This document shows, in pieces, positions 127 through 33,741 of a DNA stretch of 45,586 nucleotides (the first letter of the stretch is position 1; each line of letters begins with the position of its first letter). Position numbers and translations under genes: made by a program. The DNA lies in IMG/VR virus record IMGVR_UViG_3300042997_001997, positions 1-45,586 of that record; one strand, 5' to 3'. The notes beneath the pieces were generated by a model. The model searched no databases. It was not told the DNA's origin and saw nothing but the letters and a program-made list of their open reading frames with translations. This DNA is from a virus. Its lineage: Duplodnaviria; Caudoviricetes.

Positions 127-444
127 ATGGGACAAAGATTTATTCTTACAGAACAAGAGAGAAAACAAATTCGTGGGTTATATGAACAAGGACAACCAAC
201 TAATGTACAATTTATGGCAACGGGAACAAAATTTTGTTTCTACGGTAACTGTAGAGTGGATATTAGGGTAATTAATAAGACAACAAGCCAAATACTTGTA
301 AGTAAGGGTTTTGAAGGTAAAGACGTAACACAAGTTTACTCTCAGGTTACTAAAGCCATTCAAGACGATTTAACATCCAAAAATATAACGGGTGTTATCC
401 TTCCAACAATAGAACAACTTCAAGACACAAGTCCAAAGAAATAG
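127..444 (+). CDS. Hypothetical protein with leader MGQRFILTEQERKQIRGLYEQ; putative virion-internal protein
   Basis: ATG at 127 follows TATTTATA and is preferred over TTG at 112. Confidence 0.8.
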   Translation: MGQRFILTEQERKQIRGLYEQGQPTNVQFMATGTKFCFYGNCRVDIRVINKTTSQILVSKGFEGKDVTQVYSQVTKAIQDDLTSKNITGVILPTIEQLQDTSPKK

Positions 445-463
445 TTTTAAATATTTATACTCT

Positions 464-1288
464 ATGAAACAAACCTTAAACGAACAGATAGGTAGAATTA
501 AATCAATGATGAATTTAATTACAGAACAATCGAGCATTATCATATCAATAACGGGAGAACAACCATATTCGACAGATCCAAAAAAGAATATTACAAATTG
601 GGATGATGTTCATGGTTACTTAGGTTCCGTAAAAATGGATGATGATTTAGAACAAAGGGTGGGGGATAAACTAAAGCAAGGTAACTATAGAGTTGTTTCG
701 GTTACCGCCGAATCATATGTTGATGGTGATAAAGTAATCACTGACGGAGAAGCAACATTACAAGTCGATAATAACAATCCCGACATTGCATTTACAACAA
801 GAGGTTCTATAGGTGAAAATTATGTGGCTCGTCATGATGCGCAAGTAAGTGGTTTGATTGATAGGTTATCAAAGTATTATAAAGGTGATGCGAGAAAAAT
901 CTCAACCATAGTAGTTCCAGTTTCAGGAACAACAATTGCGTATAAGCAATCATTCTTTGCGGTTTCAAAAAATTCTCAAACCAATACGCCACAACAAGAG
1001 CAAAGCGTTACAATTAAGGGAATCGATTTAGATGATTTAAGAGCCAAAATATCCGCTTCAACTAAAAATATATCTATTGACGTTTCATCTATTAAAATTG
1101 ACGCTCCTAATTTCTCAGTTAGTTACAAACCAGGAAGTGAGCAAATAAAGACTATGTCATTTATATGGGACGATAGAGGTGATTTAGAAAGAAGATTCGA
1201 AGGTATTCAAGCAAAAAATCCAACAATGGAAAAAATAGAAAACGGAACAATACAAAATATCCAATGGGCGTTATCTATCATTCGTTAA
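464..1288 (+). CDS. Hypothetical protein with leader MKQTLNEQIGRIKSMMNLITEQ
   Basis: 274-aa ORF, TATTTATA at 452-459. Confidence 0.85.
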   Translation: MKQTLNEQIGRIKSMMNLITEQSSIIISITGEQPYSTDPKKNITNWDDVHGYLGSVKMDDDLEQRVGDKLKQGNYRVVSVTAESYVDGDKVITDGEATLQVDNNNPDIAFTTRGSIGENYVARHDAQVSGLIDRLSKYYKGDARKISTIVVPVSGTTIAYKQSFFAVSKNSQTNTPQQEQSVTIKGIDLDDLRAKISASTKNISIDVSSIKIDAPNFSVSYKPGSEQIKTMSFIWDDRGDLERRFEGIQAKNPTMEKIENGTIQNIQWALSIIR

Positions 1289-1308
1289 ACAAGTATATTT
1301 ATTAACAC

Positions 1309-2484: not shown

Positions 2485-2491
2485 AGATACC

Positions 2492-2591: not shown

Positions 2592-3302
2592 ATGAAATTC
2601 AGTGATATTTTAATTTTAGAAGAAACTAACATAAACCCTAAGAATTTAAAATTCGGCGATAGGGGTGATGATGTTAAGAAATTACAACAATTATTAATGG
2701 ATAAGGGGCTTCTTAAGACTACGTCTATGAAACCCACAGGATACTTCGGTAAATTGACAAGAGCCGCATTAGATAAAGCTAAGGGCGTAAAGAATACATC
2801 TGTAGTATCTAAGCAAGTTACATCTAAACAAGTTGAACCAAAGAAAGCTGAAACGCAACGTAATACCGTTGTATTGGTTGGTGGTTTAAACTATCGTTCT
2901 GGTGATAAATCAACATCTGAGCAAGCGTCCATGTTAAGTAACGCAATCGGTATGTCGGTTAAAGGATTTGATTATAATGCCGCTGATGGTACTATATTAG
3001 CTTTTATGAAAGCAAACCAAGGCGCCCCAATATTCTTATTTAGCGCAGGATGTAATAAAGCATTGATGCTTAGTAAATCGGAGTATGTTGATAAATCATC
3101 ATTATTCATTATTGAACCATACGCTACCAGTGCAAATGTAAGAGCAATTGTTAGTGGTGCAGTAAATAATGGAGTTCCTGCAAGTCACGTGTTTGTGGGT
3201 GGAAATTCATCAAGAGGTTTGGGTGCGGTTAGTGGAGCATCTAAATCTAATGCAAAATCTCATTGGGACGCGATTGCATCCGTTGGGAAGATGGTTATGT
3301 AA
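2592..3302 (+). CDS. PG-binding domain protein with possible alpha/beta-hydrolase-like C-terminal domain
   Basis: LKFGDRGDDVKKLQQLL...TGYFGKLTRAAL (PG_binding_1 pattern); LFSAG elbow-like motif; late His in SHWD; leader MKFSDILILEE. Confidence 0.7.
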   Translation: MKFSDILILEETNINPKNLKFGDRGDDVKKLQQLLMDKGLLKTTSMKPTGYFGKLTRAALDKAKGVKNTSVVSKQVTSKQVEPKKAETQRNTVVLVGGLNYRSGDKSTSEQASMLSNAIGMSVKGFDYNAADGTILAFMKANQGAPIFLFSAGCNKALMLSKSEYVDKSSLFIIEPYATSANVRAIVSGAVNNGVPASHVFVGGNSSRGLGAVSGASKSNAKSHWDAIASVGKMVM

Positions 3303-3331: not shown

Positions 3332-3868
3332 ATGTACAAGAATTTTAATTTAACAGACAAAGAGAGACAGCAAATTATGGAACAACATAAGTCTCACGGT
3401 TACAAAAAACCATTGAATGAAAACAGTCAACAAGCTATGGCTATGTTGCAACAAGAAACCCAAACATTTAATCAAGAGGTTGATGAAGATTTAACACCAG
3501 AAGAATATAAGGAAGTAATGTGTTCTGATCCTAATCAAATTGAAATGCCACAAAATCTTGATGATGCACAAAAACAAAAGGCTGAAGAATTTAAAATGGC
3601 AGCAAGCAAAGCGACGCGTGAACAATTGAAGGAAGCAAAACAACAAATAAAAGCTTTAAAGAATCAACAACAACAAAACGAACAAGGGGTACCTGCATTG
3701 GTAACCATATTAGGTGTTAGCATGAATCCTGGTGTTGCAATTGCGCTTGGTTTGGTTCTATTTGTGGTTGTATTATCATTTTTAGGTAGAATGTTTAGAA
3801 CAAAAAGAACAACATATTTCTGTGATGGTACAAGATCTCGCGGACTTTTTGGGCTTCTAAGATGGTAA
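3332..3868 (+). CDS. Leader-bearing protein with C-terminal transmembrane helix
   Basis: Start reassigned to ATG 3332 after TATTTATA (3320-3327); VAIALGLVLFVVVLSFLG TM segment. Confidence 0.8.
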   Translation: MYKNFNLTDKERQQIMEQHKSHGYKKPLNENSQQAMAMLQQETQTFNQEVDEDLTPEEYKEVMCSDPNQIEMPQNLDDAQKQKAEEFKMAASKATREQLKEAKQQIKALKNQQQQNEQGVPALVTILGVSMNPGVAIALGLVLFVVVLSFLGRMFRTKRTTYFCDGTRSRGLFGLLRW

Positions 3869-3911
3869 TTGATAAAATGTAGATATTTATAGATACAAAA
3901 AATAAATTAAC

Positions 3912-4202
3912 ATGGAAGAAACAAACAATTTACCGATTAACGGAACCGGAACGGTTTATCACACATCTGATTGTGGAGAGCCGCAAGTAAAAGCATACAC
4001 CGATGGTGGTGCTACATTAGTATCAGATGATTGCGGTGCTTGTAGCGATGTTCACCCTGATTTGGTTACAATAATGTTTGAAGTGCTAACAGCAGGAAGA
4101 GAACGCGTTGAACCATTATATGGTTTTAACGTTCATTATTGGACAATTGAGGAATTGCACCAAGCATACAAAGCAAAAACAGGTAACGACTTTATCGCAT
4201 AA
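3912..4202 (+). CDS. Hypothetical protein
   Basis: 96-aa ORF between TATTTATA (3884) and a terminator. Confidence 0.75.
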   Translation: MEETNNLPINGTGTVYHTSDCGEPQVKAYTDGGATLVSDDCGACSDVHPDLVTIMFEVLTAGRERVEPLYGFNVHYWTIEELHQAYKAKTGNDFIA

Positions 4203-4233
4203 AAAAAAGCCCTTCATTTAGAAGGGTTTTTTT
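4201..4233. terminator. Bidirectional terminator
   Basis: A-run + GCCCTTC-attta-GAAGGGT + T-run between convergent genes. Confidence 0.8.
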
Positions 4234-4234
4234 A

Positions 4235-5338
4235 TTATATGTTTAATCCAAAGATTTTATTTTTATTATCAGGACTTAGTCTTTCATATTCCTGTTTTTG
4301 TAATTCACTTCTATCATCATTTACATTTTTTGGTGAAATAACCGGTGCAAATGGTATTGCGTTTAAGTTCACTTTATTAGAATAATCGACAACTATATCC
4401 ATACTTCTTACACCCTTCTTTGATAAGTATTGTCTATAATACTGCACAAAATCGTCTATCCTATCAACCAAATCAATACAACCAATTGAACCTGCAAATG
4501 CACCGCCATGTAAGAAGAAGCCGCCTCTACCAAATGTTTCAGTTCCACCTTTCTTTGTAATTGGTAATCTATAATTTCCCCATGCACATTGATCTTGTAT
4601 TGTTCCACTATTAAAATTGTGATTGTCACCTATTTTTTCAAATTCATCTTTCACCATTTTCCCAATTTGCTCCCATGTCTTGTTTCCAGCTAATTTAAGC
4701 GCATTGCCGTTGGTTCTCGCCTGTATTGAACTAATTGTATAGTTACCTTGCGGTATTGGTCCATTATCTTTCATCCTCATGAATTCAATTTTAGTTAACG
4801 TAGTTGCTAATTGTTTTTGATAAGGGGTTAACGTATTCCATAGTTGTCTACCGCTCCATGCATTCCATTGTCTTAATATTCTACCGTTTTCCACCCAACT
4901 AAATGTTTTACCATTAAAAACAAGGTATGCGAGCGAACTTGTTTTTTCTTTTGTTGTATTTGGTACAACTGGTGTTGTTGGTTTTACAACAACTGTGTTA
5001 AAATTTAACGCTTTTTTTGTTAAAGGTCCAATTGTATTCGTTTCCCCTGATATTTTATTCTTCTCTTGAAATTTTGCTAATGCTAATTTTGTTCCTTTTC
5101 CAAAATCACCATCAATTCCGTTGTTTACGTTTGTATACTTTGTTAACATTGGTGCAAACTCTGTTTTGCTAAGTGCTGTTTGTAATTTTTTAACATCGTC
5201 TTTCGACATTGGTGTTGAGCTAGGTTTGGTGCTACCACTACCACTACCATCAACGGGTAATGATTCCACATCTTCATTTAATACACCTGATACAATTTTC
5301 TTTAATTGCGCTTCTGTGATTTTATAAACTTTCTTCAT
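4235..5338 (-). CDS. Leader + PG-binding domain + Tlde1/DUF2778-like L,D-transpeptidase-fold domain
   Basis: IDGDFGKGTKLALAKFQ; GPIPQGNY; RGGFFLHGG...GSIGCI catalytic His/Cys motif. Confidence 0.8.
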   Translation of the reverse strand: MKKVYKITEAQLKKIVSGVLNEDVESLPVDGSGSGSTKPSSTPMSKDDVKKLQTALSKTEFAPMLTKYTNVNNGIDGDFGKGTKLALAKFQEKNKISGETNTIGPLTKKALNFNTVVVKPTTPVVPNTTKEKTSSLAYLVFNGKTFSWVENGRILRQWNAWSGRQLWNTLTPYQKQLATTLTKIEFMRMKDNGPIPQGNYTISSIQARTNGNALKLAGNKTWEQIGKMVKDEFEKIGDNHNFNSGTIQDQCAWGNYRLPITKKGGTETFGRGGFFLHGGAFAGSIGCIDLVDRIDDFVQYYRQYLSKKGVRSMDIVVDYSNKVNLNAIPFAPVISPKNVNDDRSELQKQEYERLSPDNKNKIFGLNI

Positions 5339-5369
5339 ATAACGACTTGTCTATATAAATATGTAAAAA

Positions 5370-5882
5370 TTACCTTTTAACATATACTAAACTGCCATTT
5401 TTAACCATATCGATTATTTTTTTATTGGTTTCTTCCGGTGTGGCAAAACATCCCCACGAATATTTGGTTTTCATTAATCTGTTTGAATGGAATATGATTG
5501 CACGTATTTCAGCGTTGTTATTAGTCGATTCTAAGCCCTTTACTATCATTGAGTACCCGAAACGTCCGACATATGTTCCTTTCGTCTGATAAGCCCCTGG
5601 TGATGATTTTTTGGTATTCACAACATTGCTGTAATCTGTTGCAAATGTTAACCCGCTATTTCTTGCGTGAGCCACTATGGATCGTAGAACAATGATTGAT
5701 TTTTTCATATCTACCACGAATAACCTGACATCATCTATGGGTTTGGTATAATCTATAATAACCACATAATGCTTGTTGGGGGTGTTGTGTGCCATTTGCT
5801 TTTGTTTGGCTAAATCTATAATGGCTTTATCCTCATTGATAATCAGTGAGTTAAACATCATTAATAACATCAGTTTAAACAT
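5370..5882 (-). CDS. L,D-transpeptidase catalytic-domain protein (YkuD_2-like)
   Basis: VIIDYTKP...RLFVVDM, VAHARNSG, SSPGAYQT, NNAEIRAIIFH...SWGCF; hydrophobic N-terminus. Confidence 0.85.
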   Translation of the reverse strand: MFKLMLLMMFNSLIINEDKAIIDLAKQKQMAHNTPNKHYVVIIDYTKPIDDVRLFVVDMKKSIIVLRSIVAHARNSGLTFATDYSNVVNTKKSSPGAYQTKGTYVGRFGYSMIVKGLESTNNNAEIRAIIFHSNRLMKTKYSWGCFATPEETNKKIIDMVKNGSLVYVKR

Positions 5883-6203: not shown

Positions 6204-8627
6204 ATGTCACAAGCTTCACGTAATCACATTAAAATAGGATCTTCAGATAAAAATTCAATATTCGACGGAACATTTAGTTACGGGGCAAGCGGTGGCGATG
6301 ATTATGGTCCAAGTTCAATTACGGGTTTTTATAATGGTGTACCAATTCCTGTGGGTGGTTATGTTATATATGTAAACAACAATGGTGTAATAACAGCACA
6401 TGCGCCGAAAAACGATGCTGAATGTTTATTTTATCTAAACCAATATGGTGCAAATGCAAATAACATATCCGATGCTCTTTCATGGGCAAGTTCGGAATTA
6501 AATTTGGATGTTCGTTCAAACGAATATCAGGTAAATGAATTAAGCGGCGGTGTTACGCCAACCCCAACACCAACTATTACACCAACAATATCTGTTACAC
6601 CAACGGTTACCGGTACACCAACTCAAACGCCGACGAATACATCGACTCCAACTAATACACCAACTGCAACAGTCACACCAACTCCAACATCTAGTGAAAT
6701 AATTCCTGATACACCTACACCAACACCTACCAATACTACAACACCAACACCAACACCAACTACCACATCAACTTATTATTACTATTATTTATTAAATTGT
6801 AATTTAGTTGATAACAAATATGGTAGAAGTATAAACCCTTCATTAAGTGGTGATACATTTAATATTAGTGGTAATACTTGTTATTCAATCGTAGGTAATG
6901 ACCCTGGACCTTATTATGATTATGATTTGGATATTGCAACTTTAGTTACAGATTGTACAGATGTGTCATGTGACGGACCAACACCAACACCAACTAATAC
7001 TCCAACAGAAACACCTACAAATACACCAACGGTAACTCCTACGCAAACGCCAACAGAAACACCTACGAATACACCAACTCCAACTCCAACTGATTCGAGT
7101 TCAATAACTACATACACAATTTCAGGATGTACTAATCTAAATGTTTTAGTTGTCGATTTAGGACCAGGATTTATAGTTCTTGGAGATGTAAACTATTACA
7201 CATTCACAGGAGCAACACCAAGTGGGTGTTATTCAGTCATTGGTAAGATAAATGCTCCGATAGACGACGCGTTTACCACATCATTTGGAACTGGTGGATG
7301 TAATGATTGTGAGAGTACTTATATAACTCCAACCCCAACTCCTACGAATACCGAAACTCCTACTCCTACTCCTACAGAAACTGAAGTATTAACACCAACT
7401 CCTACGAATACCGAAACTCCTACTCCTACTCCTACAGAAACTGAAGTATTAACACCAACACCAACTCCGACAGCAACAAGTACACCAACTCCAACTCCGA
7501 CAGCAACAAGTACACCTACACCTACACCTACACCTACAATTGATTTAAGTGCAGTAACAACTTATACAATTTCGGGATGTACTAGTTCAAATACACTTAT
7601 TGCAAATTTAATAAGTTCAAACTTAGCGCCGGGTGATACTTTCTTTTTAGAATTTACAGGTGCAACTTTAAGCGAGTGTTATACTATTGTTAATAAAATT
7701 GATGCAACACCTGATGACGGAAGTTTTCCAATTACGTTCTACCCTAATTGTGTTGATTGTATCAATGCAACAACTACAACTCCTACACCAACACCAACCG
7801 TTACATCAAGTGAAACTCCTACTCCGACACCTACTAATACAACAACACCTACCGAAACCCCAACTAACACACCAACATCTACTCCAACGGAGACGCCGAC
7901 TAATACGCCTACCCCAACTAACACACCAATTCCAGATTTAGTTACAAACGGTTTAGTTATTCAATTAGATGCTTATGATAGTACAAGTTATTCTGGCGGA
8001 ACAACTGTTTTTGATATTACAAGTGGATATAACCATACATTAACAGGTGCGAATTACGTAGTTCTTAACGGTATTAAATGTTTTGATTGTACAACAGGAA
8101 CTAATAGAGTTGTTGTGAATGGAACGGGTCCTACATTACCAACAAGTGGATATACATATATTACTTGGGCAAGAATGTTAACAAGTAATACTGCATTTAG
8201 AACATTACTTTATACAAACTCACCAAAATACACACCAATTACTATCCCTAATGGGACAAACACATTAGGATATTGGGATTCCGAGTTTAGAAATTCGGGA
8301 TATGATGTTTCATCTGAAGGTGGTATTTGGGTTCAATTTGCAGTGGTTGGAACTAACTCATCTCAAACATTCTACATAAATGGTTCACAAGTGGGAAGTA
8401 CAATTGCTTTCGGTGCCGGTGGAACAACACATTGGGGATGGGGTAATAATGATTTAACAGGTCAACCTTGGGGACACGTTGCCAATATGTATTTCTACAA
8501 TAGACAATTATCTCTTTCTGAAATCACACAACAATATAATTTCTTGGCACCAAGATTTGTGGAACAAACACCAACTCCAACACCTACAGTTACACCAACA
8601 ATCACACCTACCAATACATTATACTAA
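6204..8627 (+). CDS. Thr-Pro-rich (mucin-like) multidomain protein with C-terminal LamG/ConA-like domain; putative virion fibre or decoration protein
   Basis: Five PT/TP tracts, three Cys-containing modules, [12 protein letters not shown]...FYING...[15 protein letters not shown] pattern; TATTTAT at 6181. Confidence 0.8.
7335..7516 (+). repeat. Intragenic tandem duplications (60 bp x2, then 30 bp x2)
   Basis: 7341-7399 equals 7401-7459; CCAACTCCGACAGCAACAAGTACACC at 7461 and 7491. Confidence 0.9.
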
Positions 8628-8649: not shown

Positions 8650-8763
8650 ATGGGAACAGCAGCTCCAAAACCACGTGCTATGAGAAGTAGACGTTCAGGA
8701 ATTAAAAAATTAGAAATAGTAAAAAAGAATTTAGAAATTCTTAAAAAACTTAAGGGTAATTAA
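8650..8763 (+). CDS. 37-aa basic peptide MGTAAPKPRAMRSRRSGIKKLEIVKKNLEILKKLKGN (not in ORF track)
   Basis: ATG after A-rich leader; exactly fills the gap, stop overlaps the convergent gene's stop. Confidence 0.65.
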   Translation: MGTAAPKPRAMRSRRSGIKKLEIVKKNLEILKKLKGN

Positions 8764-9605
8764 ATATTAAACCAATTATCTCTAACGTTTTTTTGTTTTT
8801 GAACTGGTTCACTTGGTAAATCTGAACCATTCCAATCAGCTTGAGTGCTTTTGTCGGTAAGATTAAATTCACTTAAGAATGATGCGTCCTTTTTGAGTTG
8901 TTCATACTTTTGTTCGTCAATGTTACTATATGATATACTTCTACCAAATGATCTTTGTATCTTATGTTTTTGTAATATTGGATTTGTGGACTTAAAGAAT
9001 TCACCATGAACCTGCTGATACTTTCCACTTTTAGATAAATTCTGATAAAGATTACCAATTAATTTTGCTTCTTTTTTATATGTTTGATAAGTCATTACAG
9101 ATAACATCTTTTCACGTTGTTTATCTGTTGATATTATTGTAAAAACTAATTCTAAACCTTGTTTAATTACTTCTTGTGATAATTCAAAGTTGGAAGAGTC
9201 TCCTCTGACTGTAACATTAAAACCATAGTCTAACGAATTAATTCGTCGCATTTCTTGTTGAAATAATGGACCATGCTGTTCTTTAAATCGTCCGTTTTGT
9301 AACCAATAAACATGTATCATTTCATGCGCTAAAACATCCTTAAAAAATTTATAGGGGATTTTAAGGAATTGGGACATGCTAAGGGAAACTATTTTAATTT
9401 CCCCACTTATTCTGTTTCTAGTTGCTTTAACAACTCCGTGTGCAACTTTTCTTGTGTTCCATAACATAGTTACAGGTTGTAACTTATTGTCAAACAATAA
9501 CTTATTTAATTTAGAATACTCTTGCTGTAAATCAATTTCATTAAAATCGACTATCTCATCATCCGTATGTTCTCTAATTTCATTTAAAATTGACATCAAC
9601 TTCAT
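8760..9605 (-). CDS. SprT-like zinc metalloprotease with leader MKLMSILNE
   Basis: YSKLNKLLFDNKL, VLAHEMIH, HGPLFQQEMRRIN. Confidence 0.85.
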   Translation of the reverse strand: MKLMSILNEIREHTDDEIVDFNEIDLQQEYSKLNKLLFDNKLQPVTMLWNTRKVAHGVVKATRNRISGEIKIVSLSMSQFLKIPYKFFKDVLAHEMIHVYWLQNGRFKEQHGPLFQQEMRRINSLDYGFNVTVRGDSSNFELSQEVIKQGLELVFTIISTDKQREKMLSVMTYQTYKKEAKLIGNLYQNLSKSGKYQQVHGEFFKSTNPILQKHKIQRSFGRSISYSNIDEQKYEQLKKDASFLSEFNLTDKSTQADWNGSDLPSEPVQKQKNVRDNWFNI

Positions 9606-9964: not shown

Positions 9965-11209
9965 ATGAAAATACGCTTAACAGAATCGCAAATTAATTAC
10001 CTTGTTGAAAATATCAAAGATATTGATGAGGATTTGTTTTTGAAAAAAGACCCAGAAAATAAGAAATTAGTTATTTTTTCCGATTTAGATGGCGGTAATG
10101 AGACATTCAAACTTAAAGAAAAATTCAAAGAATTAGGTTTTACGTGGGATGCTTTAACCAAAAATTGGGTTGGTGATTATGATAAATTAGAAGCTATTAA
10201 TGACTTAATAAAAAAACACAATAAGACAAGAGAAGTTGTTGAAGACATTGAAAATCTTATTGAATTTGTAAGACAAGAAAATATAGATCCAACATCTAAA
10301 GAACTTATCGTTAAGAATTTAATGCAGTATGTTGATGATTTGGCTAATGCAACCGATGCTGCAGCTATGGATGCTGCGATAAGAAATTATCTAACCTTTT
10401 ATAGTAGATTCCACAATTATAGTTTTAATAATAGTATTATGATTATGATACAAAGACCTACAGCTACAAAAGTGGCAAGTAAAGGTGATTGGGCAAAAAG
10501 AAGTAGGGGATTAAAAAAGGGGGCAAAAGCAATTTGGATTTGGCGTCCTAATATGATTAAAGCAGCGCCTCCGGGAACTAAATGGACTGAAGAAAAACCA
10601 AAACCAGATCAAGATTATGGTGATATCGATCAAGCAATTAAACAAGGTGATGTTAAAAAACTTAGTGGCTTTGCGTTGGCTGCGGTTTACGATATTGCAG
10701 ATACGTTTGCGTTTAATGAAAAGGGAGATGTACCTGAACAACCTAAATGGTTTTCGGATAATGAACCAAGCGAAATTGCAGAAGATTTAATTAAAAGAGT
10801 AAAATTCTTTAGTGAGGAACTTGGTATTAAAATAACTAAAGATACCGCTAAAGGTGGTGAAAAAGGTTATAGTGCAGGCGGACATATAAATTTATCTTCG
10901 GACGTCGCAGGTGTTGCTGAAGCGTCAACATTAGTCCATGAAATGGCACACGAATTATTGCATTGGAAGAAAAAATCTCCGTTTTATACTAATGATGAAC
11001 AGTCTAACTCTCGTGAAATGAAGGAGTTACAAGCGGAGTCAGTATCATATGTAGTTTTAAAACACTATAATTTACCCGTAGCACATCACCCAACATATTT
11101 AGCATTATGGAAAGCAAATAGTGAAAAGATTAGAAAAAACATGGATATCATTACTAAATGTGCCAAATACATCATCGAGGGCATTGACAACGCAAAATTA
11201 GAAAATTAA
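9965..11209 (+). CDS. ArdC-like ssDNA-binding domain + zincin metallopeptidase, with virion-type leader
   Basis: FHNYSFNNSIMIMIQRPTATKVA...W...KKGAKAIWIW, VYDIADT, TLVHEMAHELLH, ELQAESVSYVV. Confidence 0.85.
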   Translation: MKIRLTESQINYLVENIKDIDEDLFLKKDPENKKLVIFSDLDGGNETFKLKEKFKELGFTWDALTKNWVGDYDKLEAINDLIKKHNKTREVVEDIENLIEFVRQENIDPTSKELIVKNLMQYVDDLANATDAAAMDAAIRNYLTFYSRFHNYSFNNSIMIMIQRPTATKVASKGDWAKRSRGLKKGAKAIWIWRPNMIKAAPPGTKWTEEKPKPDQDYGDIDQAIKQGDVKKLSGFALAAVYDIADTFAFNEKGDVPEQPKWFSDNEPSEIAEDLIKRVKFFSEELGIKITKDTAKGGEKGYSAGGHINLSSDVAGVAEASTLVHEMAHELLHWKKKSPFYTNDEQSNSREMKELQAESVSYVVLKHYNLPVAHHPTYLALWKANSEKIRKNMDIITKCAKYIIEGIDNAKLEN

Positions 11210-12133: not shown

Positions 12134-12562
12134 ATGGGAAAAAAAATTAAGATAACCGAAAATCAATTAAAAAAATTGGTTGAGAATAAAAACAAGAAAG
12201 CTATTCAAGAAAATGATGGTGGTAGTGAAACAAACTACATGTTTTTTTCTAATTTGGAGCAATTACATAGACAAACAAAATTGTTAATGGAACTAGATCC
12301 AAATAAGGTTAATGAAACACTTAATAATGGACATGATTGGGCTGATGATCATGTAACGGTTGCAAAAGAAAACCTAAGTCAAGTGTTTGATTTTATGATG
12401 AACGAATTTAAAGGTTCTGGTGAAGAAGAGCAAGATCCATTCTATGACAGAGAAGAAGAAATCAATTACGGTACTGAAGAAGATGAGGTGGAACCAAAAG
12501 ACAACGGAATTATGAACGAATCAGTTCAAAAGATTAAAAATCAATTTAAAAGATTTTTTTAA
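12134..12562 (+). CDS. Acidic hypothetical protein with leader MGKKIKITENQLKKLVE and C-terminal IMNESVQKIK motif
   Basis: 142-aa ORF, TATTTATA at 12110. Confidence 0.85.
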   Translation: MGKKIKITENQLKKLVENKNKKAIQENDGGSETNYMFFSNLEQLHRQTKLLMELDPNKVNETLNNGHDWADDHVTVAKENLSQVFDFMMNEFKGSGEEEQDPFYDREEEINYGTEEDEVEPKDNGIMNESVQKIKNQFKRFF

Positions 12563-21988: not shown

Positions 21989-21989
21989 T

Positions 21990-22550: not shown

Positions 22551-22555
22551 AACCT

Positions 22556-23188
22556 ATGATAGAAAAATGGGGTTATAATGGCACGAAGAACTTAATTGGT
22601 TCGGTAAAAGAATTGATAACAAACAATAATTACAATTCAGTTGACGTTGGCGCAAGCGCTCAGCCATGGACATACCCAGAGTGTAAAACTTTTATTGATA
22701 CTGTGTCTCCAAGTATTGGGGATGTAAATTTTATTAAAGTAAATTTAGAGGACGAAGATTCAAGAAACGAATTTTTAAAATATATAGAACAAAACGGTAA
22801 GTTTGACTTTTCGGTTTGTTCACACACAATTGAAGATATTTTTAACCCAATAGATGCTATTAAATTTTTAACGAAAATATCTAAAAGAGGATACCTTTCC
22901 ATACCTTCAAAATATAACGAATTTAAAAAATTATTTAACAACAATTACAGAGGTAACGCACACCATAAGCAATTTTTTGATGTTATAGATAATAAATTAA
23001 TTATATATCCAAAGTTTTCATTTATTGAGAACGACGAGAGAAGTGAGAAATTAATTGGACAATATAAAGGTGATGAACTGACAATTTTTTGGGAGGATAG
23101 TATTGATTTTGAGATATTTGGTAACGGAACTCCGTTTAATGGTGATAACGATTTAATACATAATTTCTACAACCAACTATTAGATTAA
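22556..23188 (+). CDS. Class I SAM-dependent methyltransferase-like protein
   Basis: VDVGAS, FDFSVCSHTIEDIFNP. Confidence 0.75.
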   Translation: MIEKWGYNGTKNLIGSVKELITNNNYNSVDVGASAQPWTYPECKTFIDTVSPSIGDVNFIKVNLEDEDSRNEFLKYIEQNGKFDFSVCSHTIEDIFNPIDAIKFLTKISKRGYLSIPSKYNEFKKLFNNNYRGNAHHKQFFDVIDNKLIIYPKFSFIENDERSEKLIGQYKGDELTIFWEDSIDFEIFGNGTPFNGDNDLIHNFYNQLLD

Positions 23189-23889
23189 TGAAAAAAACTG
23201 CCGTTGTTACCGTACTTTTTGACTACCCAGAACATTTTATACCTGTATTTCAAAATAAACTATTAAACGATATTAACCCGAATGATTATTATGTTGTTAG
23301 ATACATGAGTAAGGATGAAGGTATTGCGGATGAAAGTTATTATTATAAATTCACATACTTTAGGATAAGAAAGTTTATTAAATTTATAGAAGAAAAGATA
23401 TTAAATAACTACGATTATTTCATTCTACTTGACGCTACTGATGTTGCATATGTTGGTGGTATTAGTAACATTGATTCGATTATGACGGAATATAATTGTG
23501 ATATACTTTTTGGTGCGGAAAGAAATTTATGGCCTAATACAGAATATAGTCATTTACATGATAAGAAAAATATTACCACACCTTATAAATTTTTAAATGC
23601 GGGTGTTTTTTGTGCTAAACCCGAATCGTATGTTAAACACATTTACAATATATTAGAAAGAAAATTATTCGGTTTATGTGATCAAGGTAATTGGCAAATT
23701 GAATATTTGTTAAATGAAAACATTGAATTGGATTATAAAAATAAATTAACGTTAAATACTTATTTGGGTAAAGAGGATTTTGCATTGGAAGATAGTAAAA
23801 TAAAATTCTTAACTAATGAACCGATTTTTGTTCACGATAATGGTGGTTATAATGACGAGACAATTAAAATAGTAGATTATTTCAAATGA
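23188..23889 (+). CDS. PLOD/LH3-type GT-A glycosyltransferase domain protein
   Basis: LLDATDV, ILFGAERNLWP, YKFLNAGVF, DQG, PIFVHDNG. Confidence 0.75.
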   Translation: MKKTAVVTVLFDYPEHFIPVFQNKLLNDINPNDYYVVRYMSKDEGIADESYYYKFTYFRIRKFIKFIEEKILNNYDYFILLDATDVAYVGGISNIDSIMTEYNCDILFGAERNLWPNTEYSHLHDKKNITTPYKFLNAGVFCAKPESYVKHIYNILERKLFGLCDQGNWQIEYLLNENIELDYKNKLTLNTYLGKEDFALEDSKIKFLTNEPIFVHDNGGYNDETIKIVDYFK

Positions 23890-24869
23890 GAACAGTAAGA
23901 ATTACAAGACAGGGATTACCAAACCACGGACAGCATAGTTGGATAAATTATTTTAAATTTATATTGTCAAAAAAATATAATGTTATTGTTGATCCAATAA
24001 ACCCCGATGTTATCATACACAGTGATTTAAACTGTAATGAAACTCAAATAGACACATATACTGGACAATTACCAAGTCAATTTAATCAAAGCGATAGGAA
24101 TAAGAAATTTATTTACATATCTGGTGAAGTCGCTGATTTTATGTCACCAATTAACGCAAATGAAAATCAATGGGCTTTAGGATATAATAAAATCGAACAC
24201 CCAAGGTACTTAAGACAACCTTCAGGGGTATTGGATGTGTGGACATTATTTGATGAATCAAGATTAGTTGATAGTCCATTAAATTGGTTAACCGATAAAC
24301 GAGACTTTGAGGTTATATCAAAAAGAAATATTGGCTTCTGTTCAATAACACAAGCATCAAATAATGACTTTAGAGGCGTCATTTTTGACAAATTATCGGA
24401 ATATAAGGAAGTAAGTTCATCTGGACCTTGGAGACAAAATTTACAGGGTAATAATACGTTAAACAAGTATCAATGGATGAACCCATTATACAATGGAAGA
24501 ATTGACGGTTTAACCTACAGAGAAAAAATTGACTTATTTAAAAAATATAAGTTCAATATGGCAATTCACTATACAAATACGGACTACATTTTACAAGAGA
24601 AAATATACCATGCTTTCTTTAGTGGAGCAATACCGATTTTTTATGGTAATCAATATATTTTAGAAGAGGGGTTTAATCCAGAAAGTTTTATAAACTTACA
24701 CGATTATACCGAATTGGGTGAATTTTTAGAATTGGTTAAACGTATCGATACTGATGATATGCTGTATAAAAAATACATCGATGCTCCAATTTTTGTTGAC
24801 AATAAATTACCGGATTACTATGACTTTGAGTATACTCTTAGTTTTTTAGAAAAAATTATAGAAGCATAA
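23886..24869 (+). CDS. GT10 (alpha-1,3/4-fucosyltransferase-like) glycosyltransferase
   Basis: YISGE, KIDLFKKYKFNMAI...DYILQEKIYHAFFSGAIPIFYG, FNPESFIN. Confidence 0.8.
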   Translation: MRTVRITRQGLPNHGQHSWINYFKFILSKKYNVIVDPINPDVIIHSDLNCNETQIDTYTGQLPSQFNQSDRNKKFIYISGEVADFMSPINANENQWALGYNKIEHPRYLRQPSGVLDVWTLFDESRLVDSPLNWLTDKRDFEVISKRNIGFCSITQASNNDFRGVIFDKLSEYKEVSSSGPWRQNLQGNNTLNKYQWMNPLYNGRIDGLTYREKIDLFKKYKFNMAIHYTNTDYILQEKIYHAFFSGAIPIFYGNQYILEEGFNPESFINLHDYTELGEFLELVKRIDTDDMLYKKYIDAPIFVDNKLPDYYDFEYTLSFLEKIIEA

Positions 24870-25582
24870 TGAAATATATATTTACAACATTAGCCGTAGG
24901 TGAATCATATCTTAGTAACGCATCAAAATGTTATACTGAGTATAGTGAAAAGTGCTCAGCGGACTTTAACATCACAACAAATGAAAAATGTGAGGTTGGC
25001 TCAAAAGTTAATTTAGATTTAATTAAATTAGACAAATATCATGATAATGGTGTTGGTTTTACTTTTTTTTTAAATTTAAAAGTATTATCTTTAAAATATT
25101 GTTTGGATAAGGGGTATGATTATATTATATATAATGATGCTGATTGGAGAATGACAGACAATTTTAGTGAGGATAAATTGTTTAATTTATTTGATAGAAT
25201 GGAACAAAACAATTTAGATTTCGTTTTTGAAAGACCCGCACTAATTGGTGGACACAAGGCTGATATGAGCAATTGTTTTTTTGATAGGAAATTAAAAGAC
25301 TATCACGTTTTTGAACATACAAAATGGGACAATGCTCACGTTGTTAATGAACAATTTATGGTATTTAAAAATACGTGGAAATTTAGATATTTTGTTAGAA
25401 GATGGGAAGAATTTCTATGGTATTCAATACATAATGATATAAGAAATTATCCCGATGGATTTGACATTGGGGTATCAGCTTTAGAAGCTGAAATGAAATG
25501 GGATTGGAATTTGTTTAGGGAATGTGTGCCAAACAGTTTTGAGTTTCATGATAAGGCGGGAAATTTACACGTAAGATTTTAA
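24869..25582 (+). CDS. Putative GT-A glycosyltransferase
   Basis: FTTLAVGESY start, YDYIIYNDAD DxD motif, operon context. Confidence 0.6.
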   Translation: MKYIFTTLAVGESYLSNASKCYTEYSEKCSADFNITTNEKCEVGSKVNLDLIKLDKYHDNGVGFTFFLNLKVLSLKYCLDKGYDYIIYNDADWRMTDNFSEDKLFNLFDRMEQNNLDFVFERPALIGGHKADMSNCFFDRKLKDYHVFEHTKWDNAHVVNEQFMVFKNTWKFRYFVRRWEEFLWYSIHNDIRNYPDGFDIGVSALEAEMKWDWNLFRECVPNSFEFHDKAGNLHVRF

Positions 25583-25584
25583 AT

Positions 25585-26214
25585 ATGAATATACAAGAAA
25601 ATATAACTAGGTTTACTGATTTAGAAAACAATGACAGTTTATCTGCATTTATGAACCACACAGCGCAGCAATCGCATTTTGCATATGAGGTTTTTTATAA
25701 CTTCATAAAAGAAACTAAACCAAAAAGAATTTTGGAGATTGGTACAGCCCTTGGAGGTTTTACTGAATTTCTTTTCATCATTATAAATGAATTGGAATTG
25801 GACACTAAAATTATATCATATGATATTTCTGAAAGACCATGGTATAGTCAAATGATAGATAAAGGTATCGATATTAGAGTTGAAAATATTTTTTCATACG
25901 ATTGGGATAGTGTAAAACCCGAGGTTGAGGAATTTATTAAAGATGATGGAACTACAATTGTTTTATGTGATGGTGGTTGGAAAATCGGTGAATTTAATTT
26001 ACTATCGCAGTATATCAAATCAGGGGATTTTATTTTAGCACATGACTACGCAGAAAATAATGTTGTATTTGAAGAAAAGATTAAAAATAAAATTTGGAAT
26101 TGGCATGAAATCCAAGACTCCGATATTAGCGAAGCTTGTCAAAAAAATAACATAGAACTATATCAAAAAGATGTTTTCGAGGGAGCTGCGTGGACGTGCA
26201 GAGTAAAAAAATAA
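25585..26214 (+). CDS. Class I SAM methyltransferase (CmcI/Methyltransf_24-like)
   Basis: PKRILEIGTALGG, VLCDGG, GDFILAHD. Confidence 0.8.
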   Translation: MNIQENITRFTDLENNDSLSAFMNHTAQQSHFAYEVFYNFIKETKPKRILEIGTALGGFTEFLFIIINELELDTKIISYDISERPWYSQMIDKGIDIRVENIFSYDWDSVKPEVEEFIKDDGTTIVLCDGGWKIGEFNLLSQYIKSGDFILAHDYAENNVVFEEKIKNKIWNWHEIQDSDISEACQKNNIELYQKDVFEGAAWTCRVKK

Positions 26215-26221
26215 TTTTATT

Positions 26222-27898
26222 ATGTCTAATATTACTATTGTTACAGGTATTTGGGATATTAAGAGAAGTGAACTTTCAGAAGGGTGGAGTCGATCATTTG
26301 AACACTATTTAAATCATTTATCTAACTTAATGAAGGTTGAGGATAATATGATAATTTATATTGAGGAACAATATAAAAGTTTTGTTGAAGAAAGGAGAAA
26401 GAGTGAGAATACGTTGATAATTGTCAGAGAACTTGAATGGTTTAAATCTAACGAAATAATTTATAATAAAATTCAATCTATTAGAACAAATCCCGATTGG
26501 TATAACCAAGTCGGTTGGTTAGCTGAAAGTACGCAGGCAAAGTTAGAAATGTATAACCCAATTGTAATGTCTAAAATGTTTCTATTAAATGACGCATCAA
26601 TTATGGATCCATTTAATTCCACTAACTTAATTTGGGTTGATGGTGGATTGACAAATACGGTACATCAAGGATATTTTTGGCACGATAAAGTAATCGATAA
26701 TTTAGAAAAGTATTTAAATAAATTTTCATTTGTTTGTTTTCCGTATGATGGTAAAATTGAAATACATGGGTTTAAATATGAAGATATTTGTAGATATGCC
26801 GAAGATGATGTTAACAAAGTCGCAAGAGGTGGCATATTCGGTGGTCCAAAACATTTAATTTCACAAATAAATCAAATTTACTATAACTTACTAAATGAAA
26901 CCCTTTCAAATAATTTGATGGGGACTGAAGAAAGTTTGTTTACAATAATGACATATAAACATCCTGAGTTAATACAATATTTTGAAATTGGAATGGATGG
27001 TTTATTGGGTACTTTTTTTGAAAACCTGAAAAACAACACGTTGGTTGTTAAGCAAGAAAAGGCAGATACTATTAAAATTAACCCACATAGTAGAGATAAT
27101 GTTGCGTTGTATGTGTTGACATATAACTCACCAAATCAATTTGAAAAGCTTTGTTTATCTTTTGAAACATATGATAATAACTTCTTAGATAAACCTAAAA
27201 AATATCTATTAAATAATTCAATAGATAGATCAACGGACTTGGCATATGCTGAACTTTGTGATAGATATGGTTTTGAAGAGATTAAAAAAGATAACATAGG
27301 TATTTGTGGTGGGAGACAATTTATTGCGGAACATTCGGATGAAAATGGTTTTGATTATCATTTCTTTTTTGAAGACGATATGTTTTTTTATATGGGACCT
27401 GATGAATTTTGTAGAAATGGATTCAGAAGAAAGATAAAAGATTTTTATAACATCGTGATGGATATTGTGTGGAATGAAAATTTTGATTACCTTAAATGGA
27501 ATTTCAGTGAGTTTTTTGGCGACAACACAAAACAATGGGCTTGGCATAACGTGCCTGCGGGAGTTAGAGCAAGTTTATTTCCTGAAAAACCCGTTAAAAT
27601 AACTTCAGATCATAACATGGCGCCATTTCTAAAATTCAAAAACATTAAATCATATAAATCTGTTCCTTATGCAACTGGTGAAATTTATTATTGCAACTGG
27701 CCTCAAGTAGTGTCAAGGGAAGGTAATAGAAAAATGTTCTTAGAAACAAAATGGGCTCATCCTTTTGAGCAAACTTGGATGTCTTTTATTTATCAAGAAA
27801 CGATAAAGGGTAATATTAACCCGTCAATACTTTTGGCAACACCAACAGAACATGATAGATTTGAATTCTATCCAGGTAGTGAAAGAAGAGAAAATTAA
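26222..27898 (+). CDS. HtrL/YibB-like glycosyltransferase fused to a second GT-A domain
   Basis: TIVTGIWDIKR, SKMFLL, WVDGG, RGGIFGG, MGTEE; C-terminal half YVLTYN...FFEDD. Confidence 0.75.
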   Translation: MSNITIVTGIWDIKRSELSEGWSRSFEHYLNHLSNLMKVEDNMIIYIEEQYKSFVEERRKSENTLIIVRELEWFKSNEIIYNKIQSIRTNPDWYNQVGWLAESTQAKLEMYNPIVMSKMFLLNDASIMDPFNSTNLIWVDGGLTNTVHQGYFWHDKVIDNLEKYLNKFSFVCFPYDGKIEIHGFKYEDICRYAEDDVNKVARGGIFGGPKHLISQINQIYYNLLNETLSNNLMGTEESLFTIMTYKHPELIQYFEIGMDGLLGTFFENLKNNTLVVKQEKADTIKINPHSRDNVALYVLTYNSPNQFEKLCLSFETYDNNFLDKPKKYLLNNSIDRSTDLAYAELCDRYGFEEIKKDNIGICGGRQFIAEHSDENGFDYHFFFEDDMFFYMGPDEFCRNGFRRKIKDFYNIVMDIVWNENFDYLKWNFSEFFGDNTKQWAWHNVPAGVRASLFPEKPVKITSDHNMAPFLKFKNIKSYKSVPYATGEIYYCNWPQVVSREGNRKMFLETKWAHPFEQTWMSFIYQETIKGNINPSILLATPTEHDRFEFYPGSERREN

Positions 27899-27949: not shown

Positions 27950-28195
27950 GTGATAGTAAAACATATAAGAAATTTAAAAAAACGAGAAAATCGAATCCCG
28001 TTTCTAAAAGACATATTTTTAATGTTGGCTCTGTTCTTCAATCCTTTTGGGTTCGATGCCGTACAATATTCCCTAATATTACTGACAGGGAGTTTATGGA
28101 AAGCCAATTTCGTATTGTATTGTATTGCGGGATTCTTTTTTGGTTTATATATCTATTGTTCCAAATTATCACGTAAACAAAAAACCCCCTATTAG
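27950..28195 (+). CDS. Small two-TM membrane protein
   Basis: Two hydrophobic stretches; TATTTAT at 27901; start uncertain (GTG). Confidence 0.6.
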   Translation: MIVKHIRNLKKRENRIPFLKDIFLMLALFFNPFGFDAVQYSLILLTGSLWKANFVLYCIAGFFFGLYIYCSKLSRKQKTPY

Positions 28196-28335
28196 GAGGT
28201 TTTCTTTTTTTCTTCTTCGGGTTTTTTAAGTCCTTTTTTTAAATCGTCCTTTTTAATCAAGTCTGTTTTAATTGCATCTTTGTGTTGCTGTGAGATTTTC
28301 TTTTTTTCTTCTTGCGACATTTTAAATGTGCTCAT
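28192..28335 (-). CDS. 47-aa charged peptide MSTFKMSQEEKKKISQQHKDA... (not in ORF track)
   Basis: Starts 1 nt after the upstream stop and fills the gap; N-terminus resembles the FxLTExERxxI leader. Confidence 0.65.
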   Translation of the reverse strand: MSTFKMSQEEKKKISQQHKDAIKTDLIKKDDLKKGLKKPEEEKKKTS

Positions 28336-31021: not shown

Positions 31022-31090
31022 ATCTTTATATTTGATACAAAATTAAGTATATTATTTGATATAACAAAAAATATTTAGATATTTATAAGC

Positions 31091-32704
31091 ATGAAGGTGG
31101 CTTTATCAGAAAAACAATTAAAATTAATCACATCAATGGTTGAGGTAGATGGTGACACGAGTGCAAGTTCTGGTGCCGATACCGCAAGTACTACAAGTAC
31201 CGCAAGTAGTTCACAATCAAGTGGTACTCAATCAAGTAAGGCGGGTTATCCTGCCGTGGATAAATGGGAAAGTGGTATCACAAGAGGACCTGCCAACCCT
31301 ATCGGCGTTGCAAAATGGTCTGACGTTGTTGGGGCTAAGTTAACAAGAGGACATGCTAATCCTTTAAAAGAACAAGAAATAGGAATGCAACCGGGTAGAA
31401 CAACTCAAATTGCACAAGCTTTAAATGCGCGCGAAATAGAAAGAAAAAGAGAAATTGACAAAAATTTCAATGAAAACTTTTTTATGATTGAAATGCCAAA
31501 AACATCGTTATCAAAGGCAAGTGATTTAATTTTACCCAAAAATTACGAGGGAATTAATACAACATATAATGTTTATGAACATCCACTTAATCCATATGCT
31601 TTTTTTAAAAGTTGGGTTGGAACCGAATATGAAGATTACATACCAGATCAAAGACAATTAGAAGAGATATTGCCAAATGGAACATTAAAAAGCTTTACAA
31701 TTGGTAATAAAAGATATGTTGCATATGTAAAACGATTTAGTGACAAACCATTATTATATGGATTTCATTGGTATTTTAATGAAGATGGTAAAGCATATAA
31801 TTCTAAGGATTACATTAGTAAAGAACAAGTTCCTGAAGAATTTCAGTTAGGAGAGGGGTGGTGGTCTGAATGGGGGCAATGGGTATTAACGGCAGGTTCA
31901 ATATTGGCAGCATGTTTAATTCCAGGCGCTCAAGGGTTGTTGATTTCAATTGGATTAGATTTAGTTGCAGCAGCCGATTTGTATGTCAATAAAAAAGATA
32001 ACGTTGGCGCCGGTATTTCTTTTATTTTAGCATTTGTTCCAGTAATTGGAAATGTTGCGCGTGTTGGTAAGGTGTCTACTAAAACAGCATCAAAATTAGC
32101 AAAAACATTCGCACCTTTAAAAACTGAAGAGGAGATATTAGAGGCAATGTCTAAACTACCTAAACAAGAACAATACATTGTACAACAAATATTAAAACAA
32201 GATCCAAAGACACTAAATAAAATGATTACTGATGTTATGTCAAGTAAAATAGCCACTAAACAACAGGCTTTAAGAGTTGCCACTCAAATTAATAAACTAG
32301 TGGAAAGCGGCGTAATTCCAAAAGCATCTGCGGCTGCATTTTATAAAACTTTAGGTTTTAAAAGATTTAGATTTGATTTAGGTGTAAGTGGTTTGATTAT
32401 AGGAGCAGGAGCGGGAGTTAGATATTATTTTAATAAAAAAGCAGAAGAAGCTGTTAATCAAGGTTTAAAGCCACCATCAGAAGATGTAGAAATAGCACAA
32501 TTGTGTGCAAAGGCTGATAAAATGAATAAAAGTGATTTTGAAAATAAAATAAAACCCCTTTTTGCTAAGTATGATAAATATGATACCGAAAATGAAGCTG
32601 ATTTAAACAAATTGAGAAAAATACAAAAAGCTGTATTAAACGCATATATTGCAAATCCAAAATCAGATTTAAATGCAATTGCCAACAATACTGATAAAAA
32701 CTAA
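31091..32704 (+). CDS. Leader-bearing protein with central hydrophobic pre-toxin-like module
   Basis: MKVALSEKQLKLI; internal PLKEQ; LIPGAQG...ADLYVNKKDNVGAGISFILAFVPVIG similar to gene 1309. Confidence 0.8.
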   Translation: MKVALSEKQLKLITSMVEVDGDTSASSGADTASTTSTASSSQSSGTQSSKAGYPAVDKWESGITRGPANPIGVAKWSDVVGAKLTRGHANPLKEQEIGMQPGRTTQIAQALNAREIERKREIDKNFNENFFMIEMPKTSLSKASDLILPKNYEGINTTYNVYEHPLNPYAFFKSWVGTEYEDYIPDQRQLEEILPNGTLKSFTIGNKRYVAYVKRFSDKPLLYGFHWYFNEDGKAYNSKDYISKEQVPEEFQLGEGWWSEWGQWVLTAGSILAACLIPGAQGLLISIGLDLVAAADLYVNKKDNVGAGISFILAFVPVIGNVARVGKVSTKTASKLAKTFAPLKTEEEILEAMSKLPKQEQYIVQQILKQDPKTLNKMITDVMSSKIATKQQALRVATQINKLVESGVIPKASAAAFYKTLGFKRFRFDLGVSGLIIGAGAGVRYYFNKKAEEAVNQGLKPPSEDVEIAQLCAKADKMNKSDFENKIKPLFAKYDKYDTENEADLNKLRKIQKAVLNAYIANPKSDLNAIANNTDKN

Positions 32705-32724
32705 AAAACAATATATTTATTAAA

Positions 32725-33741
32725 ATGAAAAAACAACTATTAGAAGAAATAAATAGAATGAAAGTTCTCGGTGGTATGATAAATGAGGCTGCTACACCAT
32801 CATCCATTATAGCCCAATTAGTTTCTAAATTTACAAAAACAGCTTTAGATGACACAATTTTAGCGGCATTTGAAGTGTTAGAAAGAAAGGGGGTTATTGC
32901 AATTGATAAAACCTCAAAGATGTTAACCAAAGTTGATTGGCAAAAATTAGCTGATGATGAGATGAAATTATTGTTTACCGCTCCTCCATTAAGAGCAGCT
33001 TTAGAAGAAGTAACAAAAAAGGCTGGTGTGGACATTACAAGTTCGGCTCAGAAAGTGGCTTTTAAAGGTGGTTTTAAAAAAATAGTTAAAGGTTATGATG
33101 ATGCAGCAGGTAGTTTAATATCGGGAGGAAGTTCAAAAATTACCCCTAACGCCGCAACAAATGTTGCAGGTAGTGTACCAAATTTTAATATTCCAAATTT
33201 AAATACAACAGCGTTAAATCAAGCTTGGAAAGTGGATGTTGCAGCTACAAGAGCCGCACTTAAAGCTCAGTTTCCTAAGGCTCCATCTAGAGATATTGAA
33301 ATAATGGTTCAAGGTTTGAGTAAAACAAAAGATCAAGCGACTTTTGATATTGCGATTAAAGATGCGGTAGAAAATTTTAAACCTACATATGCTAAAATTT
33401 TAGATAAGCCAGGAAAAAGAGAATTAATTAGAAAAAATTGGAATTTATTACCTTCTTGGGCTAAAACTGCTATAGGTTTATCGGCAACTGTTGTTGGTTA
33501 CAGAGCAATAAAGGCTGCGGGTATACCTATTGACAACTGGCTTGGTTGGTTGATTGGTGGTGCAAAAGAAGTTGGGGGTGATCAATATAATAGCGCTAAA
33601 GATGAGTTAAAAAAAGGTTTTAAAAAATCAAATGACGCTAATTCTTCAGGTATTAATCCAGCAAAAGATTCAATAATTGTACAACCAAATAATACCGAAG
33701 ATCCCTTAGGTCTTTTACAAAACAAAGGTGGTGGTAATTAA
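32725..33741 (+). CDS. Leader-bearing protein with late hydrophobic segment
   Basis: MKKQLLEEINRMKVLGGMINEA; TATTTAT at 32714. Confidence 0.8.
   Translation: MKKQLLEEINRMKVLGGMINEAATPSSIIAQLVSKFTKTALDDTILAAFEVLERKGVIAIDKTSKMLTKVDWQKLADDEMKLLFTAPPLRAALEEVTKKAGVDITSSAQKVAFKGGFKKIVKGYDDAAGSLISGGSSKITPNAATNVAGSVPNFNIPNLNTTALNQAWKVDVAATRAALKAQFPKAPSRDIEIMVQGLSKTKDQATFDIAIKDAVENFKPTYAKILDKPGKRELIRKNWNLLPSWAKTAIGLSATVVGYRAIKAAGIPIDNWLGWLIGGAKEVGGDQYNSAKDELKKGFKKSNDANSSGINPAKDSIIVQPNNTEDPLGLLQNKGGGN

Follow-up and report, generated by a model that had tools for sequence, protein, structure and literature searches.

The IMG/VR virus record IMGVR_UViG_3300042997_001997 (Duplodnaviria; Caudoviricetes) was analysed over positions 1 to 45,586, and this whole stretch of 45,586 bp is called the window here. 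It has a GC content of 32% and contains about 60 genes, together with transfer RNA (tRNA) genes and a transfer-messenger RNA (tmRNA) gene. An endolysin and glycosyltransferases were annotated, and no head, tail or replication genes were found among the proteins of this 45.6 kb fragment. Between positions 127 and 33,741, 18 of the 60 genes begin with one of four short leader sequences (types A to D), which the initial annotation had read as a candidate capsid-loading and prohead-protease leader system. Our results suggested that the leaders are probably T4-style capsid-targeting propeptides of a T4-type jumbo phage, cut by a protease of the S77 family. Genes were called with a simple open reading frame (ORF) script, and some starts are possibly wrong. 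Each gene is named by the position of its start codon, which is the higher coordinate for minus-strand genes. All 18 leader-bearing starts proved to be ATG-initiated ORFs with the N-termini that had been described.

Near-identical DNA (at least half of the words shared) was detected in 19 sequencing runs, 18 of which were labelled lake water and one of which is possibly the source, and one RNA run, available as contigs only, contained 0.06 of the window words. Related IMG/VR contigs reach 270-335 kb. Four relatives were examined whole (G001, G002, G007 and G008). The nearest complete one is G007, which has full-length, syntenic matches for 26 window proteins at a mean identity of 71%. The motif TAnnTTTG, described as the Bacteroidetes -7 element in the consulted part of PMC6847099, lies before 5 window genes and 141 genes of the four relatives, and the top cultured matches of the capsid protein are Rhodothermus and Flavobacterium phages. 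Both observations suggested that the host is likely a member of Bacteroidota. Searches of annotated phage proteins with 12134 and 9965 gave no close cultured relative.

Type A is the largest class; the Glu residues given here end hydrophobic-x-Glu motifs. Gene 1309 (1309-2484, +) has E7 and E16, followed by a hydrophobic segment and a C-terminal kinase-like domain; in G008 the leader in front of this domain is of type D. Gene 5338 (4235-5338, -; E9, E22) encodes a PG_binding_1 and a Tlde1 domain; the neighbouring gene at 5370-5882 (-) belongs to the L,D-transpeptidase family (YkuD_2) and has a host-type promoter. Gene 9965 (9965-11209, +; E7, E15, E22) is ArdC-like, and the model predicts that its folded body begins directly behind E22. 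Gene 12134 (12134-12562, +; E9, E17, E26) has a B-like helix at its C-terminus, and its homologues bear other leaders; those of G001, G002 and G007 are encoded 2-4 kb away from the capsid gene. Gene 12608 (12608-12946, +; E7, E15) encodes a small zinc-ribbon-like protein. Gene 14358 (13222-14358, -; E8, E21) encodes 378 residues without a known family, and gene 15615 (15250-15615, -; E8, E21) lies directly downstream of the TATTTAT gene 15919. In gene 31091 (31091-32704, +; E7, E18) the leader and a small module are fused to a body with hydrophobic segments, and the module is a stand-alone gene of 82-89 residues in G001 and G008. An A-like leader (E4, E17) starts the conserved 109-residue protein 19090 (19090-19419, +), which follows the TATTTAT gene 18822.

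Type B leaders start gene 464 (464-1288, +; E7, E21; 274 residues), gene 19822 (19822-20277, +; E7, E20) and gene 32725 (32725-33741, +; E7/E8, E21; 338 residues, no family). Type C was found in gene 127 (127-444, +; sites after E9 and E20), which encodes 105 residues of no family and has TATTTAT at -12, and in gene 3332 (3332-3868, +; E17, E30), which has two hydrophobic segments. The likeness of 3332 to G001_33554 is confined to residues 1-30, and the bodies differ. Gene 28335 (28192-28335, -) has a C-like start on a lysine-rich peptide. The type D genes are 2592 (2592-3302, +; E10/E11), with a peptidoglycan-binding domain after the leader, 9605 (8760-9605, -; E9, E12), a SprT-like metalloprotease, and 19406 (19406-19822, +; E10). 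D-tagged proteins similar to 19406 occur in relatives, and by eye also in the phage vB_FspM_immuto_2-6A (immuto below), as gp082. Gene 33759 (33759-35621, +), absent from the earlier list, encodes a peptidoglycan-binding protein in which two elements were recognized by eye: a D-like leader within the chain and, behind an LKE site at the C-terminus, a leader-like helix.

The consensus strings of the initial annotation fitted only 6 of the 18 genes in their literal form, and a relaxed form fitted all 18. The relaxed patterns of types A to C had no interior match in 12,056 residues; this comparison is circular. When residues 2-23 were compared without any preset pattern, 14 of the 60 N-termini matched at least one other beyond the 99th percentile of shuffled sequences, against a mean of 0.66 (maximum 6) for shuffled sequences and 0.74 for interior segments. 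All 14 belong to the 18 genes listed before. The three type D genes and 19090 fell below this bar, and type D and 28335 are weaker cases than the rest.

Profiles trained on the window only were then applied to the N-termini of the relatives, where about 2 matches per class and genome were expected. The matches in G007, G008, G001 and G002 numbered 15, 14, 12 and 15 for type A, 5, 7, 5 and 11 for type B, 9, 8, 9 and 5 for type C, and 22, 15, 8 and 11 for type D. Among 1.84 billion proteins the type B profile matched 199 clusters (50% identity), and among the 150 matches listed, 80 bodies of at least 60 residues stood behind type B leaders and fell into 40 families. A second site was present in 146 of 149 matches and an N-terminal position in 142 of 149, counts that are not independent of the profile, which includes the site and the Met. 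Only 8 of the 74 scanned matches had a Pfam match of any kind, and no model of PHROG, Pfam or NCBIfam covers the leaders. The domains behind the leaders had been called unrelated, which does not hold throughout: one region is common to 1309 and 31091 (E 3e-4), and PG_binding_1 occurs in 2592 as well as in 5338.

Two further N-terminal helices were noticed. A fifth leader class, with the helix MK-L--II---I-E followed by Q (G001 272752, G002 96963 and others), swaps with type A on the 12134 body. In G002 (L042-L055), dozens of scattered paralogous repeat proteins of 130-260 residues have a common N-terminal helix ending in Phe-Leu-Glu, possibly a further tag class or a mere paralogue family.

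The proposed link between tags and promoter was borne out. Among the window genes, 13 of the 18 tagged and 12 of the 42 untagged ones have TATTTAT in the 60 nt before their start (p=0.0035), and the remaining five tagged genes directly follow a TATTTAT gene or its chain. None of the five TAnnTTTG genes of the window is tagged. In the four relatives, 72 of 85 high-scoring tagged genes have or follow TATTTAT compared with 480 of 1497 other genes, and TAnnTTTG was found at none of the 85. The motifs were not as common in early and metabolic genes, an outcome that the initial annotation had named as refuting. Since terminase, portal, protease, scaffold and tail genes of the relatives also have TATTTAT upstream, it is likely the late promoter. 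G007 contains a weak gp55-like sigma match (E 9e-5). The N-terminus of its gp55-like late sigma gene 133469 (L143:13472-14170) scored 8.4 bits as type A, which is likely a false positive.

Late genes with products outside the head interior were untagged. In G007 this applied to terminase, adaptor, sheath, tube, hub, wedge, fibre and endolysin (0/11 tagged), and TATTTAT stood at 6 of these 11 genes; their names came from 62 scanned of 94 listed proteins, with the endolysin named by its likeness to window gene 14411. Gene 14411 (14411-15253, +; PG_binding_1 and GH19) served as a control in the window and has TATTTAT and no leader. In the pooled set, 630 of 746 TATTTAT genes were without a tag. 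The distance from TATTTAT to ATG in the pooled loci was bimodal (11-13 and 20-26 nt), and 72 of the 116 promoter-bearing tagged genes had the short spacing, which may give nearly leaderless mRNAs. Where type A leaders of one genome have the same residue, their codons agreed at 0.47-0.64, compared with 0.52-0.60 expected from codon usage. The same motifs also end some proteins (G001 273481, window 12134) or stand between domains. Both results argue that the leaders are not a mere expression cassette; they are conserved as protein rather than as DNA. A secretion signal was considered and rejected: the signal-peptide-like genes 5882, 13004 and 31021 are untagged and use TAnnTTTG.

Nearly all leaders had been said to end in [LIVY]-x-E. 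This held for 17 of the 18; gene 28335 has no such motif in its first 45 residues, its whole chain being 47 residues long. Most leaders of types A, B and C have two sites, one on either side of the helix. The P3 residue is I, L, V or M, and the median site lies at residue 10-21 in the pooled set. A hydrophobic-x-Glu motif within 20 residues after the A or B motif was present in 98 of 105 non-redundant proteins compared with 152 of 347 late untagged ones. In the same comparison, hydrophobic-x-Asp, x-Lys and x-Gln showed no enrichment.

The boundary between leader and body was best resolved in the ArdC-like family of 9965. Pfam ArdcN was found on most homologues, and the only three significant fold matches of 9965 are ArdC, with low TM-scores. 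Among the 120 homologues in the matches listed (375 in all), the body start was located in 107, and 13 could not be anchored. Glu directly precedes the body in 107 of 107, as part of hydrophobic-x-Glu in 105. The middle residue of the site varies, and the sequence before it is a type A leader, a type D leader, another helix or only 5-8 residues. Consistently, E22 of 9965 does not vary among the 68 sequences of an independent alignment, and the structure model places it in a loop between a low-confidence helix (residues 7-17) and the first strand, which begins at residue 24. The 12134 family has the same Glu boundary, and in the 19090 family all 30 homologues that could be anchored (of 33) have hydrophobic-x-Glu at a distance of 2-4 residues ahead of the body. 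In any one family a conserved Glu could be structural. That it recurs at the boundary of families unrelated to each other speaks for a protease site.

Behind the leaders, the bodies varied strongly. From the relatives, 93 non-redundant tagged proteins were collected, and 73 of them were scanned; the other 20 were set aside because they were short, were truncated at the end of a stretch (two) or were likely false positives. Pfam matches were obtained for 10 of the 73, including M23 (twice), Tae4 and NUDIX; ART-PolyVal and Acb1 matches stayed below the cut-offs. A full-length homologue in any of the four relatives was found for 6 of the 18 tagged window genes compared with 31 of the 42 untagged ones (8/12 late untagged genes and 23/30 others). 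By this comparison, the tagged genes turn over fast. A single contig from a close strain aligns with 4847-5819 and 3398-4237 on either side of about 600 differing letters, so that the leader and peptidoglycan-binding part of 5338 are kept and its C-terminal part differs.

A gp21-like protease had been proposed as the cutting enzyme. The S77 family (PF03420) was found in all five relatives searched, as was a gp23-like capsid protein (PF07068), and G007 has both. The capsid precursor carries LINEAA at residues 57-62 in 120 of 120 homologues, and each scaffold contains 15-23 hydrophobic-x-Glu sites. The window-trained type B profile ranked the C-terminus of the scaffold 4 to 7 among the 375-428 C-termini of each of the four genomes, and the C-termini ranked higher belong to other proteins ending in B-like helices. 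In direct alignments, the best match of the window to the scaffold tail was a type B leader each time (464 in three of the four relatives, 19822 in one; scores 25-36). In immuto, the N-terminus of gp083 was the best scaffold-tail match (49, next 30) among 200 ORFs, which come from 100 of its 160 kb. Scaffold tails of other phages bind capsid protein. Type B resembles the scaffold tail modestly in the clade of the window and strongly in immuto. A predicted complex of the G007 capsid protein with the 464 leader scored 0.00 twice and gave no evidence either way.

Taken together, the S77 protease and gp23-type capsid of the relatives, the late-promoter link, the untagged tail genes, the Glu boundary, the swapping of leaders and the effector-like cargo are consistent with capsid loading and prohead proteolysis as originally proposed. 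Loading, cutting and injection deserve separate grades. Cleavage of the leaders is very probable, and that the tagged proteins are loaded into the head is nearly as well favoured; for injection of most of the cargo, we see an even chance. A late sigma factor would transcribe the TATTTAT genes, and the amphipathic leader would dock the late-made protein on the growing prohead core or shell, as in T4; type B would dock perhaps where the scaffold tail binds. The S77 protease would then cut behind the Glu of hydrophobic-x-Glu, in many leaders on either side of the helix, and free the body. Freed bodies would stay with the DNA, and judging from the cargo type, some would be ejected at the next infection, with the cell wall or host defences as their targets. 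Some tagged proteins, in particular small conserved ones, may be core components that are destroyed and not injected.

A more elaborate version is a tentative one that we hold to be rather doubtful. In it, each leader class would dock at its own prohead site, with type B copying the scaffold tail, and tags at N-termini, at C-termini and between domains would let the protease release the modules of polyproteins. If such a multi-address code existed, about 5-10% of the genes in a 300 kb genome would form a virion-loaded, swappable arsenal spanning cell-wall enzymes, anti-restriction proteins, proteins like those acting against the cyclic oligonucleotide-based antiphage signalling system (anti-CBASS-like) and kinases. 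The tags would then be a sequence marker for finding counter-defence proteins.

Several observations weigh against reading the leaders as cleaved capsid-targeting propeptides. Gene 28335 lacks the site, and the site motif is short, so that 44% of late untagged genes have one within 20 residues. Hydrophobic-x-Asn was also raised (50 of 105 versus 99 of 347), which can be traced to Asn being the commonest middle residue, and the regular expressions for the site and promoter counts were broadened after the N-termini of the relatives were known. The enrichment of type B was weak in G007 and G001 (5 versus 2), and the held-out match lists hold clear false positives, such as a late sigma factor matched by the type A profile. 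Hydrophobic segments occur in 3 of the 18 tagged proteins, whose sizes reach 537 residues; T4 internal proteins are given as 8-20 kDa in the consulted parts of PMC9026906 and PMC3012670, and the SPN3US ejection protein gp47 also has a membrane segment, according to the accessible text of PMC5694885. The protease gene of this phage itself lies outside the 45.6 kb fragment. The capsid site after E60 (LINE) lies 7 residues before the gp23-aligned segment and the T4 cut 23 residues before it, so the register with T4 is not conserved. Finally, untagged N-termini match the scaffold tail equally well in G001 and G008.

Among other explanations, the one nearest to propeptide-directed loading agrees that the tags target the prohead and holds that the proteins are mostly core- or scaffold-like, as T4 gp67 and gp68, and are chopped up and leave the head. 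Several tagged proteins are indeed small, acidic or coiled-coil and conserved (12134, 19090), the homologues of 12134 lie close to the capsid gene, and B-like helices end several head-region proteins. Many bodies, however, are enzymes or have effector-like folds, and they change quickly between relatives and within the population, which makes this explanation unlikely as a general one. It is less probable still that the leaders are uncleaved amphipathic helices for oligomerization or for a partner outside the head, such as a chaperone, the membrane or an assembly site, with Glu as part of the helix pattern. The predicted helicity, the high background of hydrophobic-x-Glu and the membrane-like segments of three proteins would fit such a role. 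It does not account for an enrichment restricted to Glu over Asp, Lys and Gln, for a boundary Glu that persists when the leader shrinks to 5-8 residues, or for untagged tail and lysis genes.

A role of the leaders at the DNA level, as a promoter-plus-start cassette that captures genes by recombination or aids translation start and whose peptide is functionless, would explain the tight link to TATTTAT and its frequent position 11-13 nt before ATG. The saturation of synonymous codons largely refutes it, most TATTTAT genes of the pooled set have no tag, and C-terminal and internal copies of the motifs exist; we regard it as very improbable. Chance likeness of starts rich in Lys, Ile and Glu has the AT-rich genome on its side, as well as the poor fit of the literal consensus and the failure of type D in the window. 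The excess over shuffles, the held-out enrichment in four genomes and the many clusters matched by the type B profile refute it for types A, B and C, and overall it is hardly credible.

The leaders resemble the T4 capsid-targeting sequence most. According to the portions consulted of PMC9026906 and PMC3012670, this is a propeptide of 10-19 residues on IPI, IPII, IPIII and Alt, which is sufficient for packaging and is cut by gp21 at L/I-x-E, and these reviews already present it as a means to load varied proteins. Thus the principle is known. The two systems share short N-terminal propeptides on diverse, poorly conserved proteins, a Glu-type site, counter-defence cargo, and a gp21/S77 protease with a gp23-type capsid in the clade; the likeness is one of features. 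In contrast to T4, there are four or more leader classes here, of 10-26 residues and in many cases with sites flanking the helix. The window has them on 18 of its 60 genes and each relative on 16-29 high-scoring genes, compared with about four in T4. Bodies reach 500-750 residues, motifs also occur at C-termini and between domains, and one class resembles the scaffold tail. What is new is therefore the several tag classes, the scale and the use at C-termini and between domains, whereas the concept comes from T4.

Other phages offer partial parallels. In phiKZ and SPN3US, which are also jumbo phages, many inner head proteins are trimmed after Glu by gp175/gp245, with a propeptide inferred to target and a membrane segment in the ejection protein gp47; the site there reads A-x-E or S-x-E, and the majority of propeptides are longer than 100 residues, as far as described in the accessible portions of PMC5694885 and PMC10052503. 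Neither feature was seen in our leaders, with their I, L, V or M at P3 and median site at residue 10-21, which are short and shared and belong to a gp23-type head. Polyvalent proteins combine ArdC-N with an MPTase domain, a kind of architecture also seen in 9965, and were proposed to travel with the DNA into the host; ART-PolyVal-like cargo occurs in a relative here. A common leader is not described in the part of PMC5512222 consulted, and in our phages the domains are mostly separate tagged genes. The Flavobacterium phage immuto (NC_055915, Immutovirus) is a cultured relative by capsid similarity, with leader-like starts and one near-copy of its own scaffold tail. It differs in its size of 160 kb, its capsid protein is about 40% identical over 58% of that of G001, and the proteins are annotated as hypothetical. 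No publication on immuto virion proteomics was found in a search that left subscription journals and supplements mostly aside. No paper on the leader classes was found either, nor were they mentioned in the consulted parts of PMC7824862, PMC13573597 and 10.64898/2026.10.24.761521, with supplements and most subscription journals outside that search.

A clade with several tag classes, one of them like the scaffold tail, offers a testable docking idea and a cultured model in immuto. It bears on how the T4 targeting sequence docks and on how widely phages use such tags. The tag would flag likely virion-delivered proteins in abundant freshwater jumbo phages, where 63 of the 73 tagged representatives have no Pfam family, and it could serve for loading proteins into Bacteroidota phages.

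Other features of the window were also recorded. A cluster of glycosyltransferase and methyltransferase genes (N-acetylglucosamine/GT60-like, GT10 and HtrL-like) occupies 20738-27898 and 6204-8627, together with a Thr/Pro-repeat protein with a laminin G domain. Within 35732-36827 (-), the phage tmRNA gene (36429-36827) is directly followed by a GIY-YIG homing endonuclease gene with TATTTAT, and gene 85574 of G007 is similar to this endonuclease. Further long non-coding DNA without an Rfam match lies at about 41730-42230 and at 43690-44040, and a full-length GOLLD RNA (300 bits, cut-off 150) was found at 41320-41727 (-) amid tRNA genes.

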